Part shown: positions 1,767 through 43,839 of the stretch, piece by piece
Numbering within the stretch: position 1 is the stretch's first letter
How the letters are laid out: each line of letters opens with the position of its first letter
Source: Scenedesmus sp. PABB004
Lineage: Eukaryota
DNA length: 64,000 nucleotides
Direction of reading: 5' to 3'
NCBI GenBank assembly: GCA_014905635.1
Contig: JABVCE010000014.1
Location: forward strand, 930,001-994,000
Position numbers and translations under genes: made by a program
The notes under the pieces: model-generated
Told to the model about the DNA's origin: nothing
The model's input: only the letters and a program-made list of their open reading frames with translations
Databases searched by the model: none

Positions 1767-2287
1767 GGCGGCGGGCCTGCGCTCAGGCGCGCGGGCTAGC
1801 TGGAGGAGGGCTGCTCGGCGTCGACTCGCGGCGTCGCTGGCGCTCGCAGGGGCTGCACGAGGTCTGGGACGGCGGTAGACTGCGGCTGGGCAGCTCGGGA
1901 GCAGCGAATGACGCGCAGCGCGGCTGCCGCGAAAAGTGACAGCGGCCCCAGGCGCTGGGACCAGGGGCACCAGGCACGAACCGGCGACCGCTCACTTGCG
2001 TCGACGGCGGCCGCGGCACGCCCGAACTCAGGCGACACGTCGCGGCCCCTGGCGCCGCCTGGGCGCGCAGGGACCAGCTGCTGATGGCGCAGCCCGCGCG
2101 CGGGGGGCAGCCCCATCGCTGTTCGCGCCGCGGTCCGCGCCACGCTGCCGTCTGTCCCAGCCGCTGCTCGGTGTAGCCAGCTGCTCGGCACACGGCGAGC
2201 GGCGGCACCAACTCGAGCAGCGCCGCCGCCGCTCGAACTGCGCGGTGCGCGGGCAGACCAGCAGCGCTGATTACCGGCCCCGGCCCC

Positions 2288-3270
2288 TCAGGCGTACCGA
2301 GCCGCCTGCATGAAGCGCAGCGCCGCCAGGCCGCCGAACAGCACCTGCGCGCGCCGGCGGGCGGGCGGCGCGGCACCGGCGGGGTCGGCCGGGTCGGGCA
2401 GCCGCAGCCGCGCGCGCGGCAGGCGCGGCAGGCGCGGCAGGCGCGGCGGGCGCGGCGGTCGCGGCGGGTGCGGCGGCGGCCCGGGTCAGCCGCCGCCCGT
2501 GCCTGGACGCAGCAGAAGCCCAGCGATATCGCGTTGAGCAGCACCTCCACCTTGAGCCTGCGCGGCCAGCGGGGCGGCGAGGCGGTGTGGCGCGCGCGCG
2601 CCGCCTGGCCGCCGCCTGGCCGCGCGCGCCGCCGCGCCGGCTCACACGTAGGTCTGGAATCTTAGGAAGTAGACAAAGAACGCGACCATGGGCGCGGCGA
2701 GCAGCACGCTCAAGCTGAGCGGCCCCGACGCCTCGACCTTGTTGCCCTTTGAGCCTGCGGGCGGCGTGCGCCGGTCGCGGCCGCCGCCGCCGCCTGAGCG
2801 AGGCCGAGCACGTCGCCCCCGCTGCAGGGAGCAGCCGCGCACCCAGGAAGAGGCGCGCCGGCTCGACGAGCAGAAAGAGCCAGAGGACCGCAAACTCGGC
2901 GCCAAACTTGGCGCGCGGGTAGGGCAGCGTGAGGCCTGCGGCGGCGCGGCGGCGGCCCCGTGCCGGTGCTGCTGTTGCTGTTACCAGAGACAGAGCTGCC
3001 GGCGCCTGCGGGCACGCACCCTTGTAGATGAAGACGGCGACGCTGACCGCCCAGAAGAACGCGTCCCACCAGCATCCAAAGTACAGGAACACTTGCAGCG
3101 GCAGCGACGTGAGGATGGGCCGGCTGCGCGCCGTGTCTGGGCGGGGGCGGGCCGGGATCGGGGCGCAGCACGACCAGCGCGGCGGCCACGACAGCAGCGG
3201 CGCCGCCGCTGTGCCCGCCGCGCCGCACCGGTCGCGGGCGCGGGCGCGGCCCGGGCTCACCGTGCATCAT
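2288..3270 (-). CDS. TMEM216: TMEM216/TMEM17-family ciliary transition-zone membrane protein
   Basis: Six phase-compatible exons: MMH-DTARSRPILTSLPLQVFLYF...YKG-LTLPYP...EPARLFLG-SKGNKVE...FLRFQTYV-LKVE...VLFGGLAALRFMQAARYA*. The LPYP, RLFLGSKGN and QTYVL motifs are typical of Transmemb_17. Confidence 0.85.
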
Positions 3271-3622: not shown

Positions 3623-4052
3623 CTAGCTGCCCCCCGCCGGTGCCGCTGCGACCTCCGCGACCGCTCCGCCGGCCACGCCCGCGCCGCCGCCGCCGGCGGC
3701 CGCCGTGGGGCAGTCGCGCTGCAGCGCCGCGGCCACGCGGCTCTGGATGAGCCGCACCATGAGCGGGTCGATGCCTGCGGCGCCGCGCGGCGGCGGCGTG
3801 CTGCGCTCGGAGCGCCACGCCGCGCGCGCCGCCGTGCGTCCTGCGAGCCCGCGCGCGCGCGCGCGCACCGATGGGCTCCGCGACGCTGCAGGCGACGCCC
3901 GGGAACTGCTCGCGCGCCTCGTCGACGAGGCGGGGGATGTCGTCCTGGATGTGGCGGCCGCGGGAGAGGAAGTACGGCGCGACCACGACGCGCCGCGCGC
4001 CCGCGGCCACGCACTTGCCTGGGTTGAGGCGCGGCGGGGGGCGGCGCCGTGA

Positions 4053-4104
<52 letters not shown>

Positions 4105-4522
4105 GGCACGCCCAGGGCTGGGCGAGGCGCGGCGCGGCGTCGCCCGCACCGATGGCTTGCGCGATGCTAGGCTCCGCGATCTCCATGTGCGCCGGCTCGA
4201 CCACCGCCACGCCGGTGAGGGCGCGGTAGAGGGCGCAAAACTCCACCAGCGCGTCGTTCGACGCGGCGCGCCGGCTGCCGTGGTCGACCACGACGACCGC
4301 GCAGTCGCACGCCGCCTCGCCGCACGGCGCCGCCGCCGCGGCGGCCGCGCCAAGGCCCGCCGAGCGCGTCAGGCTGCTGCGGCACCGCGAGGGAGCCGGA
4401 CGCAGCAGCTGCGCCGGCCAGGGGCGCGCGGCGCCAGCGGCGGCCGGCGCGGCAGCGCCGCTGCTGCGCGCCGGCCCGCGCCCGCGCGGCCGCATGGGCC
4501 GCGCCTTTGCGGCGGCCTGCAT
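3623..4522 (-). CDS. SIRB: Sirohydrochlorin ferrochelatase (SirB/CbiX), siroheme synthesis
   Basis: VVVDHGSRRAASN, EPAHMEIAEPSI, VVAPYFLSRGRHIQDDIP and AEPIGIDPLM across three exons. ATG at 4522 begins an Arg/Ala-rich presequence. Confidence 0.93.
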
Positions 4523-4927
4523 GCCTGGGCCTGCACTGGCTGCGGAGGAGAGCCTGCCGGGCCGCGCCTGGGCGGCTGGCCGCGCTGAAGGGCGGGCGAT
4601 GGCCGGGCGGGCGCCCACGCAGCACGCACTGGGGCAGGGGCGGCAGCTCGAGCGCCTGGGTGGACTGGAGTGGGCCATCGCCGGCGTGGGGCTGTGCGAG
4701 CGGGACACCGCTGGACCCCGGCGGCGCAGGCTCCCAGCTTGCAGGGGGGCCACTGCGGGCGCCCTGCGAGTTCCCGCCACATCGCATTCGGTCGGCCGCT
4801 TGGCGCTGCGTCTGGAGGAGAGCTGCCGCCGGCTGCCGCTTCCTCGGCACACCGCGCGCCGCGCGCCGCCGCTGCTGTCGGATTGGGCGCGCAAGGCCCA
4901 ATCCACGCCGGCCGCGCCGCGGCAGCT
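4401..4927. repeat. Inverted repeat copy A (sirB 5' coding end plus most of the sirB/MOT1 intergenic region)
   Basis: Its reverse complement aligns by eye along its whole length with 6705-7233, with scattered substitutions and small indels. Confidence 0.97.
4880..4904. promoter_or_regulatory. Palindromic double CCAAT element in the divergent sirB/MOT1 promoter
   Basis: ggattgggc-gcgcaag-gcccaatcc has CCAAT on both strands and a GGCCCA motif. It is retained in copy B (6729-6754). Function is inferred. Confidence 0.4.
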
Positions 4928-4982
4928 CGCGGCTTGAGCAGAGGCAACAGCAGCACGGGGAGCATCTCCAGCAGCTGCTGTG

Positions 4983-6680
4983 ATGGCAGAGGTGCAGCTC
5001 GGCGGCGACGGTGGCACGCCGCCGCCGCCGCCGCACGCGCCGCCGCCGCATGCGCCGCGTCGCCGCTGGCTGGCCGAGGCGAGCGGCGCGGTCGGCGACC
5101 TGGGCACGTTCCTGCCGCTGGTCGTCGCGCTCGCGGCGGGTGCGCACCTGGACCTCGGCACTACGCTGGCTTTCTCTGGCCTTTACAACATCGCGTCCGG
5201 CTGGGGCTTTGGCATCCCCATGTGCGTGCAGCCGATGAAGACCATCGCCGCGGTTGCGCTCACGACGCCAGGTGCGCGCGGGGCAGTGCGCGGCGCGCGA
5301 CACCGCCGCTCGGCAGTTCCCGCGCGCGGCCCACACGCTCGCCGCCTGACCGCCACCGCGGGCGTGCAGGGCTGACGCTGCCGGAGGCGATGGCGGCGGG
5401 GCTGTTTGTGTCAGGCGTCATGCTGCTCCTTGGCCTCACAGGTGGGCATGGCCGCAGAAGCGGCGGCGGCAGCAGCCGCCGCCGGCAGCCCGCGGCCCGA
5501 GCGCCGCGCCCCGCGGCGCGCAGGCGCGATGGGCCTGGTGCATGCCCTCGTCCCCACCAGCATCGTGCGCGGCATCCAGCTGGCGGTGGGGCTGGGCCTG
5601 GCCAAGAAGGTGCGGGGTGCGGGGGCGCCGCGACAGGCGCGCGCGCGGCGCAGCCGGCCCGCCGAGCCCGGGCGCGCTCACCGGCCGCCCCCGCCCACGC
5701 CGCAGGGCATCGCGCAGGCACTGCAGGACGCGCAGGGCCGGCGGCGGCCGTGGGGCGGCGCCGAGGGCCTGCTGCTGGGCCTGGCGGCGCTCGGATTCCT
5801 GCTGGTGACGACCGCCTCGCCAGCGCTGGCGGCGGCCGAGCAGCCGCAGGCCGCGGCGGCAGCGGAGGCGCAGGAGGGCGGCGACGAGGAGCAGCAGCGC
5901 CTGGTCGGTGACGCGTCGCCGCGGCGGCGGCGGCCTCCGCAGCAGGAGCCGGCGCCGGGGGCGTGCGAGGGCGGCGGCGGCAGCGGCGTGCCGTCTGCGC
6001 TTCTGGTGGTCGCCGCCGGGCTGGTGCTCGCACCCGTCACCCACCCAGAGGTGCTGCGCAGCCTGCGGCTGGGGCCAAGCGTGCCGCGCCTCGTGCTGCC
6101 GACCTGGGCGGACTGGAAGGCAGGCGTGCTGCGCGCCGGGGTCGCGCAACTGCCGTTGACGAGCCTGAACAGCGTGGTCGCGGTGTCGCAGCTCGCGCTG
6201 CAGCTCTTCCCCGAGCGCGCCGCGCGCGACGGCGCGCGGTGGGCGCCCGGCGTCGTCGCCGCGAGCGTGGGCGCGATGAACTTGGTCGGCTGCTGGTGGG
6301 GCGCGTGGCCCTGCTGCCACGGCTCCGGCGGCCTCGCCGCGCAGTTCAAGTTTGGCGCCCGCACCGGGGCAGCGCCGGTCATGCTCGGGTGCGCTAAGAT
6401 CTTGCTGGCGCTCACCTTTGGCAGCTCACTGCTCGCGCTGCTGCAGCTCTTCCCAGGGCCGCTGCTGGGGGCGATGCTGGCGCTGGCGGGCCTCGAGCTC
6501 GCCGGCGCGGCGCGTGCCGAGGCGGCGTCCGGCGGCGCGGGCGGCTTCGGGTCCTGCCTCCTCACCGCTGCGGCGATCCTGGGCCTCGGCGACACGGCGT
6601 CCGGCACGGCCGTGGGGCTGGCCGGCCACGCCGCGGTCGCGGCCATGCAGCGGCGACGCCAGCGGGCGTGCAAGCTGTGA
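4983..6680 (+). CDS. MOT1: Molybdate transporter, MOT1 family
   Basis: EASGAVGDLGTFLP, GIPMCVQPMKTIAAVAL, GIQLAVGL, QLPLTSLNSVVAV and PCCHGSGGLAAQFKFGARTG. Four exons with GT-AG introns. Confidence 0.95.
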
Positions 6681-6704
6681 CGATTCTGGCAAGTAATTCA
6701 CCCC

Positions 6705-7233
6705 AGCTGCCGCGGGCGCGGCCGGCGTGGATTGGGCCTTGCGCGCCCCAATCCGACAGCAGCGGCGGCGCGCGGCGCGCGGTGTGTCGAGGAAGCGGCA
6801 GCCGGCGGCAGCTCTCCTCCAGACGCAGCGCCAAGCGGCCGACCGACTCCGACACGGCGGGGAGCTCGCGGTGGCCCCCTGCAAGCTTGGGAGCCCTGCG
6901 CCGCCGCCGGGGTCCAGCGGCGTCCTGCTCGCACGACCCCGCGCCGGCGATGCCCAACCCACTCCACCAGTCCACCCAGGCGCTGGAGGTGCCGCCCCAG
7001 CCCCAGTGCGCGTCGCGTGGGCGCCCCGGCGTGGCCATCGCCCGCCCAGCGCGGCCAGCCGCCCAGGCGCGGCCGGGCAGGCTCTCCCTCGCAGCCGGTG
7101 CAGGCCCAGGCATGCAGGCCGCCGCAACGGCGCGGCCCATGCGGCCGCGCGGGCGCGGGCGGGCGTGCAGCAGCGGCGGCGCCGGGCCGGCCGCCGCCGG
7201 CGCCGCGTGCCCCTGGCCGGCGCAGCTGCTGCG
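6705..7233. repeat. Inverted repeat copy B (upstream region plus first 41 codons of the SET gene)
   Basis: Reverse complement of 4401-4927. Starts 25 bp after the MOT1 stop codon. Confidence 0.97.
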
Positions 7234-8904
7234 CGCCTCCGCGGCCGCGCCGAGCGCCGCCGAGACGGCGCCCACGGCGCTGCTGAACAACCTGTTTGAG
7301 GACCTGCTGGACAAGCTCGACATCGAGCGCCGCGTCGCGCTCGCCGACGCGCCGACCGGCGGCATCGGCCTCGTCGCGGCCGCGCCGATCGCGGCCGGCG
7401 AGACCGTGCTGCGCGTGCCGCGCGGCCTCTGCATCGCGATCGACAACGCCGACGGCAGCCTCACCATCCCCGGCGGCGACTGGCCGCGGCTCAGCGGCGG
7501 CGTGATGCAGCCGGGCGAGCCGCTCACCTGTGCGTCGCCGCCGCCGCTGCGGGCGCCGCGGGCGCCGCCGCCGCTCCCCGCCGGCGTGCGGCTCACGCCC
7601 CCGCGGCACGCGCGCATCCATCCATCCCCCGCTCTCACCCCAGGGGACGTGCTGCAGGCGCTCGCGCTCATGGACGCCACGGCGGGGGACGGCGACCCGC
7701 TGTGGGAGCTCATCGCAGACCACCTGCTGCCGCCGCCCGAGGCGCTCACGCTGCCGATGTGCTGGCCGGACGAGCTGCTCGACGAGCTGCAGCACCCGGC
7801 CATCGCCGACGCCGCGCGGCAGCAGCAGGCGCGGCGCGGCGCGGCGCGGGGCCCGGCGGGCACGCGCGGGCGCCGCCGCCGCGCGAGCGCGGGCGGCGCC
7901 CTGATCGCCCCCCCCCCCCCTCCTCCCCTCGCAGGCGCGCCTGCGCGGCCTGCTGCCGGCGGAGTACATGGACCCCATTGAGCCGGGCCTGCCCTCGTAC
8001 CTGCAGTGGGGCTTTGCCTGCGTGCGCAGCCGCGCGCTGCAGGTCGGCCCGCAGGCGTTTGGCATGGTGCCCTTTGCCGACATCGCAAACCACGCCGACG
8101 ACCCGACCGCCGACATCGCCGCTTCGTCGGCGCCGGCAGCGCCGCCGGCCGGCGCGGACGCTGGCGCTGCGCCCGCGGAGACGTCCGCGGCGGGCGGCTG
8201 GGTGGAGCTGGTCGCGCGGCGCGACCTGTCGGCGGGGGAGGAGGTGACGATCAGCTACAGCGGGCCGGGCGGCTACACCAACCAGCGCTGGATGGCGCAG
8301 TATGGCTTCGTGCCCGCCGGCGGCAACGTGGCGGACCGCCTCGACCTCGCGATCCCCGAAGGGTGCGGGCCGCCGCGCGCTGCCGCTCGCGCGTCTCCGT
8401 GCTGCCCGCGGCGGCGGCGCTGCGCGGCGAGGCGCCGGGCTGCGAGCGCCGTCGCGACGCCGCGCATGCCGCAGGCTGTCCGGCGCGACGCTGCGGCTGA
8501 GCCACGTCGAGGAGGCGCTGGGCATGGGGCTGCTGCTCGAGGCGGCCAAGGGGGCAAACCCGTACCTCATTGCTGCGCTGCGCTCGCTGCCACTCGACGC
8601 GGACGACGTGGGCGGCAGCGACATCGGCGGCGCGTCCGGCGGCGCGCCCGGCGGCGGCGGGCGCGGCATGGCGCCCGCGAGCGCGCAGGAGCGGCAGCTC
8701 GCGGGCGCGCTGCTGGAGCAGGTCACGGGGCAGCTGGCGGCGGCCGGGAGCAGCCTGGCGGACGACGAGGCGGCGCTCGCAGCGCTCAACGCCGCGCCCG
8801 GCGGCGGCGACCTGCGGCGCCGCGCGGCGCTGCGCTACCGCGCGGAGCGCAAGAAGCTGCTCGCGGCAGCACAGGTCGTGCTCGGCGTCTTTGTGCGCGA
8901 CTGA
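7112..8904 (+). CDS. SET-domain methyltransferase, Rubisco LSMT/SETD3-like, probably organelle-targeted
   Basis: GGIGLVAAAPIAAGETVLRVP, WGFACVRSRA, MVPFADIANH, RDLSAGEEVTISY, YGFVPAGGNVAD, and a C-terminal SSLADDE...AALRYRAERKKLL substrate-binding region. Confidence 0.88.
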
Positions 8905-9174
8905 GCGGAGGGTGTGCGTGGCGGGCGCGGCGGTTCTGAGGCGGTTCTTCGCCAACCTTGCCGCCGCACGGCGGCGCGCCGCCACGGTAACCACACGCGC
9001 ATTGGGCGTTTCCCGGCGTGCGCAGCCCCCGGACTCGCTCGGCGCCAGCAGCGTGGTCCGCGGGCGCGGCACGGTTCACGGCGCCGCTGCTGGCCGATGC
9101 AGTCGCCTCGCGCTGCGGCGCGGCCTGCAGCGCTGAGTGCGTGTAGCTCAGCGCGTTTGACGCGTCCAGGAGGC

Positions 9175-12100
9175 ATGGCGGCGCCGGGAGCGAGCCGCAG
9201 CCGCGGTGGCGGCGCCAGCTGCGCGCCACCGCCGCCAGCCGCGCCGCTCACGCCGCGCCGCTACCAGGCGGAGTTGATCGACCAGATCCAGCTCCTCGCT
9301 GCCTCTGGGACCAACGTGAGCGAACGAAGAACTCGGCGAGCGCTGCCTGCGCCCGGCCGCCCCTGACTCGCGCCGCCGCGCGCAGGCGCTGGTCGCGCTG
9401 CCGACGGGCGCGGGCAAGACGCTGATCGCCGCCGAGGTGCTGCGCGCGCGCCTGCCGGCGCTGCGCGCGGAGCGGCGCGCCGCGGTCTTCCTCGCACCCA
9501 CCAAGCCGCTGGTCAATCAGGTGCAGCCGTGACGCGCGCGCGCGCGCCCTGGGTGCCTGGCCCGCCGCTGCGCCTCGCCCCACGCGCGCGCCGCCGTCGC
9601 AGCAAGCGGCCGTGGTGCTGGCGGGGCAGCACGGGCTGGCGGCCAGGGCCTTCACCGGCGACTCGGGCGGGGCGGGCACGAGCACGTGGACGCGCGAGCG
9701 CTGGGCCCGGGAGCTCGCGGACGTGGAGGTCCTGGTGGCGACGCCGGAGCTGCTGCTGCACGTGCTCGCGCATGGCATGATGACGGTGCGCCGCCGGCCC
9801 GCCGCCTCGGCGGCCGCTAGGCTGCCCGGCCCGCCTGCGTCCCGGGCCGCCCAGCGCTTCTGCCCACGCGCCGCCGCCTCACCGCCGCCTCGCGGCCTTG
9901 CCGCCGCCACCGATGTCCCGCGGCAGATGCGGGACATCGGCCTGCTGGTGCTGGACGAGGCGCACCACGCCGGGTGGGCTGTGGCGTCACGGCGGCTGGC
10001 GGCTTGCTCTGCCCGGCCCTGCTGCGCGCCGCTCGCGCCCGCGCCGCCCTGCCGCTCACGCCCGGCCCACGCCCCACGCCGCCCCGCACCGCCGCACGCC
10101 GGGGCGGCCCATATCTCTCTCTGCACCGCGCCAGGGCGGGGGATCACCCCTACGCTCAGCTGCTGGAGGACTTTTACGCCACAGCTCCGGTCGACGCGCG
10201 CCCGCAGGTCCTCGCCCTCACAGCCTCGCCCGAGGGCCTGGGCGGCGGCGGCGGCCGCAAGCGGCGCGCTCGCGTGGACCTGCAGCAGCGGCTGGACGCG
10301 CGCCTGCTCACCGTCGCGGAGCACCTCTGGTGCGGGGCTCGGGCGCCGGGCGCGCCTGCTGCTGGGCGCGGCGCCGCGCGACGGCGCCGCCTGCCGTGCC
10401 GCAGGCCCGAGCTCGAGGCGGCGGTGCCCATGCCGGCCAACGTGGAGGTGCCGTACGCCGACGACGACCCCGCCTGGGCGGAGCACGCGGGCCTGGCGGA
10501 GGCGGGGGACGAGCTCAGCCTCGCACTGGAGGAGCTGCTCGGCCCCGCCAAGCGGTGAGGGAGAGGTCCGGGGGCCGCTGCGGCACGGCGGGCCAGCACA
10601 GCCCGGCGGCGGGCCAGCGCAGCCCGCGCTGTACGCCGCCGCGCTGCAGGTGCCAGGAGGTGCTGTCCCAGCTGCAGCGCCAGGCCGCGCTGGTGGCGGC
10701 GGGCGACCTGGACGTATCGGCTGAGGACGCCGCATCGCTGGCGTACTTTGACCATGACGTCAGCGGCTTCGGCTCACTGGCGCTGCTGGACAGACAGGCG
10801 CGGCTCGGCGTCAGCAGCCTGCCCCCCCCCCCCACCCACCCCACGGCGCCCGCCGTGTGAGCCGCTGACCGCGCCGCCGGCCCGCGCAGGTACGCGGTGT
10901 GCGCTCATGCCTGGCGGAGCTGGGCCCCTGGCCGGCGGCGGCGGCGGCGGCGCTCGACCTCCTGGCGGAGCGGCCAGAGGGCGGCGGCGACGCGGACGAC
11001 GGTGACGGCAACGCGGGCGCCGGCCGCCTACCCGAGGAGGGGCGCGACGACGACGATGAAGGCAGCGGCGGCGAGGGCGTCGACTCAGAGGGTGGCGGCA
11101 CGCTCGGGGGCATGGTTGACCTGGAGTTGGCCAAGCTCCTCTCAGTGGACGACCTGGGCGCGGCGCCGGGCGAGCTGCTCGTCAAGCTGGGGTGAGCGCC
11201 CGCCCGCGCACATGCAGCGCCGGCGGCGCGCGCGTCACGTCAACAGCCGCACGGCTGGGCGTCACACCCCACCCCACCGCGCCGCCTGCGCGCAGACTGG
11301 ACCTGATCTCCATCCGCACTTGGCTGTGCGACGCCGCCACGGGCATGCCCGGCGTCGTCCCGCCGCAGCGCCTGCGCACCGCGCTCGACGCGGCGGGCGA
11401 CCCGCGGCCCGACTGGTTTGACGCCGCCGCGCTCGCGACCGCGGCGTCGGCGCTGCTGGAGCTGGTGGACGCCACGGCCGCGCTGCTCGTGCTGCACGTG
11501 CTGGCGGGCCTGCTGGTGCCCGCGCGGCGCGACGTGCTGCTGGCGGACACGGCGCAGCAGGGCGTCCGCCCCCGCGCGCGCGCCGCCGGGCTCCTGGCCA
11601 GCGCCGGCGCGGCGCTGCTGGCTGCATTCCCGTTCAGCACGCTGCAGGCAGCGGTGCGCCGGCCGCGTGCCGCCGTGCCGCGCGCGGTGCAGCCCGCGGC
11701 CCAGCGCTCACGCGCCGCCGCGCCGCCGCGCCCGCGCCAGGTGTGGCCAGAGCTGCCCGCAAGCCGGGGCGCGCCCGCGTGGCGCGAGCCGCCGCTGCTC
11801 AGCCCCAAGGTCGTCACGCTGCTGCGCGTGCTGGCGGACAAGAGCGCCGCGGCGGGGCAGGGCGGCAGGGACTGGGCGGCGATCGTCTTCGTCGACACCA
11901 AGGCACGCCGGGCGGGGATCCCGGTTCTTGCGCCGTGCCGCGCCGCCCCACGTAGCCCCTGCGCGCCTCACACGCCGACCCGCGCGTTGCGCTGCCGCTC
12001 GCAGCTGGCCGCGCTTGTGTTGACGATGCTGCTGCGCAGCTGCCCCGACGTGCGCGGCAAGCTGCGCGCGGCGCACCTAGTCGGCGACACCGAGCCCGGC

Positions 12101-13349
12101 GGCGGCTCGCCGCTGCTGTGCATGACACAGGAGGTCAGCCGAGCCTCGGCCACCGCGCAGACGGGCCGTGCAGCTGGGCCGGCACGCGGCGCAGGCGGGC
12201 CGAGCATGCGCCGACGCGCCCGTGCCGCCGCCGCGTGCCTGCGCGCGTGCGCCGCCCGCCCGCAGCTCCAGGTCGAGGTGGTCGCTGGCTTCCGCAGCGG
12301 CACGTCCAACGTGCTGCTGTCGACGGCCATCGGCGCGGAGGGCCTCGACTTTCGCCAGGTCAGCTGCGTCGTCGCGCTGACCCCGCCCTCAAACGCGACC
12401 TACTACATACAGGTACAGGCAGGCTGCCGGCTGGCCGCGCGGGCGGCCGGCAGGGTCGGGCGGGCGGGCGGCGGCGCGGCGCACTCTGCTCACGCGCGCC
12501 GCGCGGTGCGGGTTTGCCGCAGGCGCGCGGCCGTGCGCGCCAGCGGGGCAGCGAGTTCTGCTGGCTCGTGCCGGCCAGCGGCGCGGGCGCGGGCGTTCGA
12601 GCCAAGAAGTGTGCGCTCGTGCAGTGCGTGCCCGCGCTCGAGCCTGGCGCGCCACGCCGTGCCTGGCACCCGGGCCGTGCTCGCCCTGCTCACCTGCTGC
12701 CCCCGACCTGTGCAGGGCGGCGGACGAGCAGGCACGCCTGGCAGTGCGCGTGTCTGCCGCAACGCGCGCGGGCGAGCCGGTGCCAGGCGGGGACGCAGCG
12801 GGCGGCCCGACGCAGCACCACCCGGAGCACCTGGTGCTGCCGCATGGCGGAGTAGCAACGCTGCGCCTCGCGCAGCCGCTGCTCGTGGGCATCTGCGCCA
12901 AGCTGCCCGGTTCCACGACGTGCGCGCTGCGTGCGGCGCGGTCGCAGCGCATGGCTGTGCGCACAGCCGCCCGCGCGCAGCACGCAGCAGCACACTCACG
13001 CGCCCGCCTGCCTCCGAGCAGCGACGCGCCACTGCAGGCCTTTTACTCCACGCGTGGCGTCCCCGTCGCCGGCCAGCCCCTCTTCACCACGACCATCTTC
13101 CTGCCCTCAAACGCGGGCTTGGGCCGCGCCATCCGCGGCCCAGCGCAAGCAAACGCCAAGGCGTCCAAGAACGCCGCCGCGCTGGAGGCCATCGCCGCGC
13201 TGTGGCGCGCCGGCAAGGTCGACGACTGGCTGCAGCCGACGTGGGGCAGCCCGCGGCACGCGCAGCAGCTGGGTGAGCGGCGGGCAGGCGCGCTCGGGCG
13301 GGGGGCGCCGCGCGGGGGCCGGCCCTGCTCGGTGCTGAGGCGCCCGCCC

Positions 13350-41989: not shown

Positions 41990-43839
41990 GCGGCGCAGCG
42001 CCGCCGAGCGCGTGCCGCCGACGCGGCGCACGCTCGCCCGCCCCCCTCCCTGCTGCGCGCGCCCCAGGTGGAGGCGGAGGAGGTGGACGCCGTGACGGAG
42101 CGCTTCGGCGTCACCACGGTGCCTTACTTTGTGCTGCTGCAGGTGCGCGGCCTGGGCGAGCAGCCCAGGCAGCGGCGCGGCGAGCAGCCCAGGCGGCGGC
42201 GCGGCGCGGCGGTGGGCAGCGCGCAGGCGGCGGCCGAGCGCGCCCCGCGCCCGCCCGCGCGCCGCCAGGCCGGCAAGGAGTGCGACCGCCTGGAGGGCGC
42301 CGACGCGCCGGGCCTGACCGAGCGCGTGTCGCGGCTCGCCGGCGCCGGCGCGCCCGCGCCGCCCTCTGCGCCGCCCGCCGCGCCGCCTGCGCCCGCGCCG
42401 CCCGCGCCGCCGGTGGACGTGCGGCGCCGCATCGAAGGCCTGCTGTCGTCGCCGCTCGTGCTGTTCCTCAAGGGCAGCGCGGCCGCGCCGTACTGCGGGT
42501 TCAGCCGCCGCGTCGTGGAGGCGCTGTCGGGCGCCGGCGCGGCGCCGGGGAGCTACGTCGACGTCGACATCCTGCGGGACGAGGAGCTCAGGCGCGGCGG
42601 CGCGGCGGCGGCGGCACGGCGGCACAGCGGCGCGGCGGCACAGCAGCGCTGCGGCGCGGCGCGCGCGGGCGGCGCGGCGCCGCCGCGGCAGCGGCAGCGG
42701 CCGCGACGCGTCCGCGCGCGTCCGCGCGCCGTCCCGCATGGTGGTGTGCGCGCAGGCAGGCGCTCAAGGAGTACAGCAACTGGCCGACATACCCACAGGT
42801 GCGCACCGCCGCGTGCCGCCGCGCCGCCGCCGCGCTCCCGCGCCGCGCGCTGCGCCCGCGCCCCGCGCGCTCCCACGCCCCGCGCGCTCCCGCGCCCGCT
42901 GCCGCCGCGGCGCGCAGCTCTACGTCGGCGGCGAGCTCGTGGGCGGCTGCGACATCGTCGGCGAGATGGCGGCCAGCGGGGAGCTCAAGGCGCTGCTGCA
43001 GGAAAAGGCGCCCGCATCGCTCGCGCCACCGCCAAAGCAGGCGCGCGTGCGCGGCCGCGCGCGTGCGTGGAGCGCCGGCCGCTGCAAGCCTCAGCCCTGC
43101 GTGCGCGCCGCGGCCGCCAGCTCACGCGCGCGCGCGCCCGTGCCGCCGCCGCCGCCGCGCCCGCCAGGCGCCGCCGCCGCCGGCGGCGCCCGCGCCGCTG
43201 AGCGCTTCCGAGCGCGCGCGCCTGGTGGGCCTGACGCAGCAGGCGCCGGTGATGCTCTTTATGAAGGGCACTCCAGAGGTGCGGCGGGTCCAGGGAGGGT
43301 TCAGGGGCCTGCCTGAACCCTGGGGGCCCGGGGCAGCGTCGCGCCCGGCCTGCTGTCACCGCCCCCCCCCTGGCCCGCGCGGCCCCGCTCGCCGCGCAAG
43401 CCCTCCGCCCCGCTCGTCGCCGCCGCCGCCGCCGCCGCGCGCCGCGCCGCTGTGCGCAGGCGCCGCGCTGCGGGTTCAGCCGCAAGGTCGCCGAGGCGCT
43501 GACGAGCGCGGGCGTGGGCTTTGGGTCATTCGACATTTTGACCGACGAGGGCGTGCGGCAGGGGCTCAAGCAGCTCAGCGAGTGGCCGACATACCCCCAG
43601 GCACGCGCCGCGGCGCCGCCGCTGGGTGCACGCGCAGGCTCCACGGGCGCCGCGGGCGCCGCCGCTGCGACGCGCCGGGCGCGGCCCGACCCGCCGGCGC
43701 CCCCGCTCTGGGCGCCGCGCAGGTGTACGTGCGCGGCGAGCTGCTGGGCGGGTGCGACATCGTGCTGGACATGGCCGCCGGCGGCGAGCTCAAGGGCAAC
43801 GTGGAGGAGATGCTGCACCGCATGCAGGACACCAGCTGA
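41592..43839 (+). CDS. GRXS17: Multidomain monothiol glutaredoxin (Trx-like plus two CGFS Grx domains; GRXS17/PICOT)
   Basis: [64 protein letters not shown] and [21 protein letters not shown]. Confidence 0.93.

Follow-up and report, generated by a model that had tools for sequence, protein, structure and literature searches.

A putative local inverted duplication joining the promoter region and presequence of sirB to a SET-domain gene in Scenedesmus sp. PABB004

We describe a locus in a 64,000-base stretch of DNA from the green alga Scenedesmus sp. PABB004 (contig JABVCE010000014.1, positions 930,001 to 994,000; hereafter the window), in which the MOT1 molybdate transporter gene is bracketed by two inverted copies of one segment of about 530 nucleotides (nt). 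One copy contains the start of sirB, a gene for a CbiX/SirB (sirohydrochlorin ferrochelatase-like) protein, and the other contains the start of a gene for a putative SET-domain lysine methyltransferase, which we call SET for the purposes of this report. The two predicted proteins share a 41-residue presequence, and the parts downstream of it are unrelated. The history that we propose, and consider fairly probable, is a local inverted duplication that took in the sirB-MOT1 intergenic region and the 41 opening codons of sirB; the copy would have been fused to SET, with MOT1 itself left uninverted.

The inverted pair and the genes it joins

The window has no N and a G+C content of 78.5%. The inverted pair was detected with a repeat finder, MAFFT and blastn (the left arm against the window, and the window against itself), all of which agree: positions 4401-4927 are the reverse complement of positions 6705-7233 (527 and 529 nt), and this is the single such pair in 64 kb. 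When the arm is compared with the window by blastn, the remaining matches are all short, GC-rich and of low complexity. In the global alignment of the arms 478 positions match and 35 do not, and 11 gap events account for 30 gap columns; the arms are thus 93% identical at aligned bases, with about 7% substitutions, and beyond either arm end identity drops to 38-45% (60 columns), so that the pair has sharp ends. The start codons lie at 4522-4520 (minus strand) and 7112-7114 (plus strand), with 405 and 407 nt of upstream DNA, respectively, inside the arms. All gap events fall 5' of the ATG—there are none in the final 65 nt before it, and none in the 122 coding nt. The left arm covers the sirB-MOT1 intergenic region minus the final 55 nt before the MOT1 ATG, and between the arms lies scarcely more than the MOT1 coding region. 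The features of the locus, in window coordinates, are listed here.

3623..4522, minus strand: CbiX/SirB (sirohydrochlorin ferrochelatase-like) gene, sirB (Pfam PF01903; tblastn of homologues P0005 and P0006)
4401..4927, minus strand: left arm, the putative original, with the first 41 codons of sirB (4522-4400) and 405 nt upstream
4928..4982, plus strand: unique 55-nt spacer from the left arm to the MOT1 ATG
4983..6680, plus strand: MOT1 molybdate transporter gene, introns present (Pfam PF16983, open reading frames, family motifs)
6681..6704, plus strand: unique 24-nt spacer from the MOT1 stop codon to the right arm, locally richer in A+T
6705..7233, plus strand: right arm, the putative copy, with 407 nt upstream and the first 41 codons of SET (7112-7234)
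7112..8904, plus strand: SET-domain Rubisco-LSMT-like lysine methyltransferase gene, SET (tblastn of homologue P0083; weak Pfam matches)

An earlier reading of the bare sequence, here called the original prediction, had reported this pair, giving each arm about 400 bp of upstream DNA, an ATG and 41 codons, counting 35 of 41 residues as identical, placing the indels in the non-coding part only, and taking both frames to be preserved. The pair is real and the description of it was accurate: the residue count is the same in our hands, the coding nucleotides contain no indel in the global alignment, and the arms are in frame with CbiX/SirB on the minus strand and with SET on the plus strand. A self-comparison of the window, which had been suggested in the form of a dot-plot and was made here with blastn, shows one inverted pair.

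All three genes are intact, as judged by tblastn with homologues and by open reading frames. The sirB gene has three exons—4522-4148, about 4019-3867, and about 3775 to the stop codon at 3625-3623—and two of its exon frames match PF01903 (E=5e-14 and 5e-6; 52.9 and 27.1 bits, with a cutoff of 22). This CbiX match, on the minus strand, is continuous with the ATG of the left arm, and no in-frame ATG occurs in SirB between residue 42 and the CbiX domain. A (GGC)n run at 4054-4108 lies within sirB intron 1 according to the homologue alignment and reads as poly-alanine in the frame of exon 1; such a run could mislead gene callers.

MOT1 begins with an ATG at 4983 and ends with a stop codon at 6678-6680, and an in-frame stop at 4935-4937 precedes this first ATG. 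Two frames between the arms match PF16983 (MFS_MOT1; E=3e-29 and 3e-15; 101.9 and 57.2 bits, with a cutoff of 30), and both signature motifs of the family, quoted in a passage of PMC10385300, can be read in the translation of the window. The SET gene consists of four open exon blocks, which run collinear with P0083, a homologue of 515 residues, as far as its last residues (tblastn E=5e-86 and 8e-34). P0083 carries PF00856; single exon frames of the window gene score below threshold both for this SET domain (21.5 bits, cutoff 22.4) and for Rubis-subs-bind, PF09273 (19.2 bits, cutoff 21.6). From residue 42 to about residue 133 of SET there is no in-frame ATG.

The duplicated presequences of SirB and SET are identical at 35 of 41 residues, with nine nucleotide differences if codon 41 is counted; seven of these are non-synonymous, in six codons, and two are synonymous. 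Arginine (eight residues in the SirB copy, seven in the SET copy) and alanine are abundant, and acidic residues are absent. In both genes the presequence reads on across the junction into the conserved domain without a break in frame. The N-terminus of SET is homologous to the presequence of SirB, and not to the N-termini of SET homologues. A second ATG stands about 58-60 codons 5' of the shared one and in frame with it in both arms (in the regions of 6944 and 4690). The net length of the indels between the two ATGs is divisible by three, but over the stretch that separates them the reading frames do not agree and the peptide is not conserved; this stretch is probably not coding.

Origin of the segment and history of the locus

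Choosing between the two genes as the owner of the segment calls for a comparison of N-termini. The set of SirB homologues comprises 82 matches, and in 29 of them the conserved DHGS is preceded by at least 40 residues. In the window, a motif W-P-[AS]-Q stands inside the repeat, 45 residues before DHGS; four of these 29 have it too (four of 82 overall: P0002, P0006, P0007 and P0008), 34-50 residues before their DHGS. When the 29 regions are shuffled with their composition preserved, 0.024 carriers arise on average and never more than one in 5000 trials, and the motif arises in 0.28% of shuffles of the window's own 41 residues. In tblastn, the alignment of P0006 to the window begins at W-P-[AS]-Q and runs through exon 1.

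For SET, a word-indexed search with the SET region yielded P0083 alone, with low-complexity words swamping the candidates, and an exhaustive representative search with the first 289 residues was used instead; we considered the best 150 of 156 matches at E<=0.001. Among these, the best N-terminal matches begin at query residue 36-42, for example in P0084 (42-141), P0085 (39-141) and P0090 (36-141), which have 33-38 unrelated residues before the match. The homologues' own N-terminal extensions are 24-38 residues long, and W-P-[AS]-Q is found in none of the extensions of the 151 SET-family matches examined.

A second line of evidence is the arrangement of SirB and MOT1 elsewhere. Scanning metagenome contigs with the SirB alignment produced 80 loci: 73 have an intronless CbiX of bacterial or picoeukaryotic appearance and are uninformative, three are cut by contig ends, and four (L001, L002, L007 and L024) share an intron position with the sirB of the window. 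L024, an algal metagenome contig of 64% G+C, is the only one of the 80 that also shows MOT1. There, MOT1 lies on the minus strand (ATG at 9034) and an intron-bearing SirB gene on the plus strand (likely ATG at 9396); the genes are divergent, head to head, and their start codons stand 362 bp apart (461 bp in the window). Around MOT1 this contig shows no inverted repeat, and the 4.3 kb downstream contain no SET gene. Since this divergent layout occurs at similar spacing and without the repeat, the present orientation of MOT1 looks ancestral; the divergent sirB-MOT1 pair probably predates the duplication, and MOT1 was probably not inverted. The SirB-homologue motif, the point at which SET homology begins and the layout of L024 together point to the left arm as the native, bidirectional sirB-MOT1 intergenic region and to SET as the recipient. 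The original prediction held that one gene had captured the upstream region and presequence of the other; the capture is supported, and the comparison of N-termini and synteny that it recommended for finding the donor points to SirB.

We propose the following course of events, which, to judge by the roughly 7% of substitutions between the arms, would lie some time back. The source would have been the native divergent sirB-MOT1 intergenic region plus the first 41 sirB codons, and a reversed copy of it would have been placed 24 nt past the MOT1 stop codon and joined in frame to SET codon 42, where the conserved part of SET begins. The upstream region and first codons of SET itself (its N-terminal extension) would have been lost, replaced by the copy, and MOT1 would have kept its ancestral orientation throughout. 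The route may have been some form of copy-and-insert repair or replication—a template switch where a fork had stalled, fold-back priming at a break beyond MOT1, or ectopic gap repair—and not an inversion. Because no microhomology is visible by eye at either of the two junctions, we can only infer the exact route. SirB and SET both belong to plastid-working kinds of protein, and SET homologues have extensions of their own, so the swap would have exchanged one presequence for another of the same kind. The feature that would have changed is the promoter: SET would now be preceded by a duplicate of the sirB promoter, within a nitrate-assimilation neighbourhood.

Several observations weigh against this history, and we set them out beside the other explanations of the locus. 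With regard to direction, 25 of the 29 SirB homologues lack W-P-[AS]-Q, and the motif was picked after being seen; in the SET family, P0094 has W-P-A-A-Q near its start, at residue 7, and P0192 opens with the same five residues as the presequence. Aligning all 41 residues locally with N-terminal extensions sets neither family apart (z of at least 3 in 0 of 29 SirB and 0 of 22 SET extensions; top z of 2.8 and 2.9), and we rejected it as a discriminator of the donor. These points leave room for the segment to have been native to SET, with sirB and the MOT1 promoter region receiving the copy. That direction is quite improbable: W-P-[AS]-Q stands at a matching offset in four SirB homologues and in 0 of 151 SET-family extensions, SET homologues align only from residue 36-42, and nearly the whole sirB-MOT1 intergenic region would have been overwritten, yet its layout and size match L024. 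As whole-presequence alignment favours neither family, the direction rests on one four-residue motif chosen post hoc, together with its position and synteny; the motif having been picked after it was seen, we regard SirB as the donor and SET as the recipient with good, though not full, confidence. The original prediction went further and proposed that the MOT1 segment had been inverted through staggered breaks, one across the 5' region of sirB and one inside the 5' coding region of SET, with fill-in of the overhangs leaving 527 nt twice. Inverted copies of formerly single-copy DNA do flank a segment here, as in 17 of 29 Drosophila inversions counted in a passage of PMC1885836, and the joint that such a model predicts gives an in-frame ATG from the 55-nt spacer, 13 codons before the body of SET; so do about 8% of 55-mers drawn at random from the window. 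The 55-nt spacer was on this account considered as a relic of SET's own start and rejected, given that frequency of chance matches and an implausible geometry: the ancestral MOT1 and SET start codons would be 17 nt apart, back to back, with no room for either promoter. The model moreover needs the opposite ancestral orientation of MOT1, whereas L024 is already divergent at similar spacing and free of the repeat. The synteny evidence is this single outgroup locus. At L007 and L057, which are algal loci with flanking sequence, SirB has no MOT1 as a neighbour, and the pairing is therefore not universal. On the evidence of that one locus the inversion is unsupported, and we think it unlikely.

The proposed duplication can also be questioned at its recipient end. 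The right arm might be a silent relic: SET would then start elsewhere, at a non-ATG codon or by way of an upstream exon spliced to it, and its junction with the arm would be in frame by chance. At 78.5% G+C nearly every frame is open, and the odds of an in-frame junction are about 1 in 3; no purifying selection is visible on the 41 codons, where seven non-synonymous changes against two synonymous ones put the ratio near 1, so the preserved frame could be luck. However, there is no other in-frame ATG before the conserved part of SET, the homologues all have an N-terminal extension that ends at the same point, and an intact SET needs a promoter and a start, for which only 24 nt of non-repeat DNA are present between the arm and MOT1. 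We consider a silent relic improbable. The capture of a working start fits better with the junction, which sits where the homologues' own extensions end, and with a SET frame that has kept some 1.3 kb of exons open over the time in which eight indel events accumulated in about 190 nt of the arms' middle, a presumably neutral stretch; in the 122 coding nt no indel is seen where about three would be expected at the upstream rate (P about 0.03-0.05, depending on the alignment). With four intact exons and no alternative start codon, SET probably relies on the captured 5' end, and we rate its use of the captured start as likely. An assembly artefact, or a genome-wide dispersed repeat present at both places, is hardly to be credited. 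Between the arms there are 35 substitutions and 11 gap events, unlike in fold-back chimeras, which makes a fold-back read or assembly duplication very unlikely as the source of the pair; only one pair exists in 64 kb; and the coding part of the left arm runs unbroken into SirB-specific sequence that is common to homologues.

Uneven divergence of the arms

The two arms have not diverged evenly along their length. Two features of their inner part, the part nearest to MOT1, are of interest here.

4788..4927: MOT1-proximal block of the left arm, with its partner at 6705-6846 in the right arm (global alignment)
4882..4902: palindromic ATTGG...CCAAT pair of the left arm, within the inner block; in the right arm at 6731-6752

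The MOT1-proximal 140 nt are 99.3% identical, with one substitution and two one-base indels, and the middle of the arms, about 190 nt with eight indel events, is 88.2% identical. Intermediate values hold for the 65 nt just upstream of the ATG (93.8%) and for the coding part (93.4%). Fisher tests give p=0.009 for the inner block against the outer part and p=4e-5 for the inner block against the middle. The near-identity of the MOT1-proximal block suggests a gene-conversion tract between the arms, which would be its simplest cause; constraint on both copies is an alternative. It also hints that the arms are still exchanging sequence.

The ATTGG...CCAAT pair occurs twice in the 64 kb, in the two arms only, where 0.01 occurrences are expected from shuffles, and it may be a bidirectional promoter element. 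As a conserved feature of sirB-MOT1 promoters it was rejected, being absent from L024.

If the whole bidirectional promoter was copied, more far-reaching consequences can be imagined, although we regard them as doubtful. Mirror-image control regions could make sirB, MOT1 and SET one nitrate-responsive unit, and the right-hand one could drive antisense transcription into the 3' end of MOT1. A MOT1 transcript that began within the left arm and ended within the right one would have complementary mRNA ends. Recombination between the arms could flip MOT1, whose invertibility the original prediction had also suggested, the two orientations being equivalent in flanking sequence. Candidate 5' and 3' ends of MOT1, folded as a duplex, give -364 kcal/mol if both 140-nt blocks are transcribed, which is a potential only; GC-rich controls without arm sequence also pair strongly (-47 kcal/mol). 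TGTAA, considered as a poly(A) signal, occurs five times in the 64 kb against 2.8 expected, and is uninformative on the 3' end of MOT1.

Nitrate assimilation, known systems and neighbouring features

SirB-type enzymes complete the synthesis of siroheme. Nitrite reductase requires this cofactor, as stated in a passage of PMC4620153, and MOT1, according to passages of PMC10385300, delivers the molybdate that nitrate reductase needs and, in Chlamydomonas, is induced by nitrate. A ferredoxin-nitrite reductase is encoded at the left edge of the window, with a match at 553-849 on the minus strand (PDB 2akj, E=6e-32), about 2.5 kb from sirB. With nitrite reductase, SirB and MOT1 as neighbours and with a nitrate-induced MOT1 in Chlamydomonas, nitrate-linked control of the captured promoter, which the original prediction had raised, is a reasonable expectation, and control shared among the genes is plausible by this analogy. 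The divergent SirB-MOT1 pair itself, with 360-460 bp between start codons, is found at 4148-5270 in the window and at 8900-10840 in L024. It may be a conserved bidirectional unit that couples the supply of siroheme and of molybdate.

Chimeric genes that arise by partial duplication are known. In those of Drosophila, a duplicated promoter and 5' coding part are set before a new 3' partner, and most of the cases described are reportedly tandem direct duplications that create an extra gene. The Scenedesmus locus resembles these in having a common, recently duplicated promoter and 5' coding segment in front of unrelated downstream parts; it differs in that an existing single-copy gene would have had its 5' end replaced.

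A further parallel is found among plastid proteins. In Populus and other Malpighiales, nuclear rpl32 took the presequence of a duplicated Cu-Zn superoxide dismutase gene, SOD1 (PMC8018952, in a passage citing Ueda 2007). In that case, as in ours, a presequence in use by one plastid protein was duplicated and fused in frame to an unrelated protein. The recipients are different: rpl32 had newly moved from the plastid and had no presequence, and the same passage calls the fusion exon shuffling, whereas SET is an old nuclear gene whose homologues have extensions. Furthermore, the junction described here is inside an exon, the promoter is included, and the copy is local, inverted and placed across a neighbouring gene.

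Staggered breaks are known to leave inverted duplications at the breakpoints of inversions (Ranz et al. 2007, PMC1885836, in part), and the locus is like these, as that source presents them, in that inverted copies of once-unique, partly coding DNA flank a segment. It is unlike them because inversion of the flanked segment is unsupported, L024 having the same orientation, and because the segment is a single 1.8-kb gene and not a chromosomal stretch. The gene neighbourhood has its own precedent in the nitrate cluster of Ostreococcus tauri, given in a passage of PMC4620153 as NAR1-NIA1-NII1-Cytb5R-NAR2-NRT2-MOT1-CNX2-CNX5, where MOT1 is likewise near nitrite reductase. SirB is unnamed as a member of algal nitrate clusters in the passages of that paper that match our search terms, where the word siroheme appears once, as the cofactor of nitrite reductase; the divergent sirB-MOT1 pair of the window and L024 is an addition to the known clusters. 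Our literature search found no description of such an event in algae, and none of SirB in nitrate clusters, an absence that a search of this kind does not prove.

What is already known, then, is the takeover of transit peptides by duplication in plastid genes newly moved to the nucleus, and the formation of chimeric genes from partial duplications; what is new here is that the presequence of an old nuclear gene that already had one would have been replaced, with a whole bidirectional promoter included, by a local inverted copy made across a neighbour. The movement of targeting peptides and promoters usually has to be rebuilt from old and eroded events. In this locus the copies have kept 93% identity and the junctions can be placed to the exact base; a donor can be named, and the layout before the duplication can be seen in another alga. 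The event is thus young enough that it would be readable almost directly. It suggests that a presequence can be replaced even in a gene that already has one, which agrees with a picture of these peptides as interchangeable and under little constraint. Should the captured promoter respond to nitrate, a plastid lysine methyltransferase would have been wired to nitrogen assimilation. The sirB-MOT1 pair beside nitrite reductase would in turn link, at one promoter, the supply of siroheme for nitrite reductase with that of molybdate for nitrate reductase.

A few further features lie around the locus and elsewhere in the window. The 5' part of the nitrite reductase gene occupies positions 1-1480 on the minus strand and runs off the left edge; it matches Pfam NIR_SIR_ferr, and its best solved relatives are the spinach and tobacco nitrite reductases. 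Between it and sirB is a gene for a predicted TMEM17-like membrane protein (2274-3266, minus strand; PF09799, E=1e-8). Downstream of SET is a helicase gene (9426-13276, plus strand; Helicase_C, E=2e-9) with a DEAH-like box in the frame of 9426-10724. The only other self-match of at least 150 nt in the window is a direct repeat of about 240 nt, at 42755-42990 and 43557-43795, with 73% identity.

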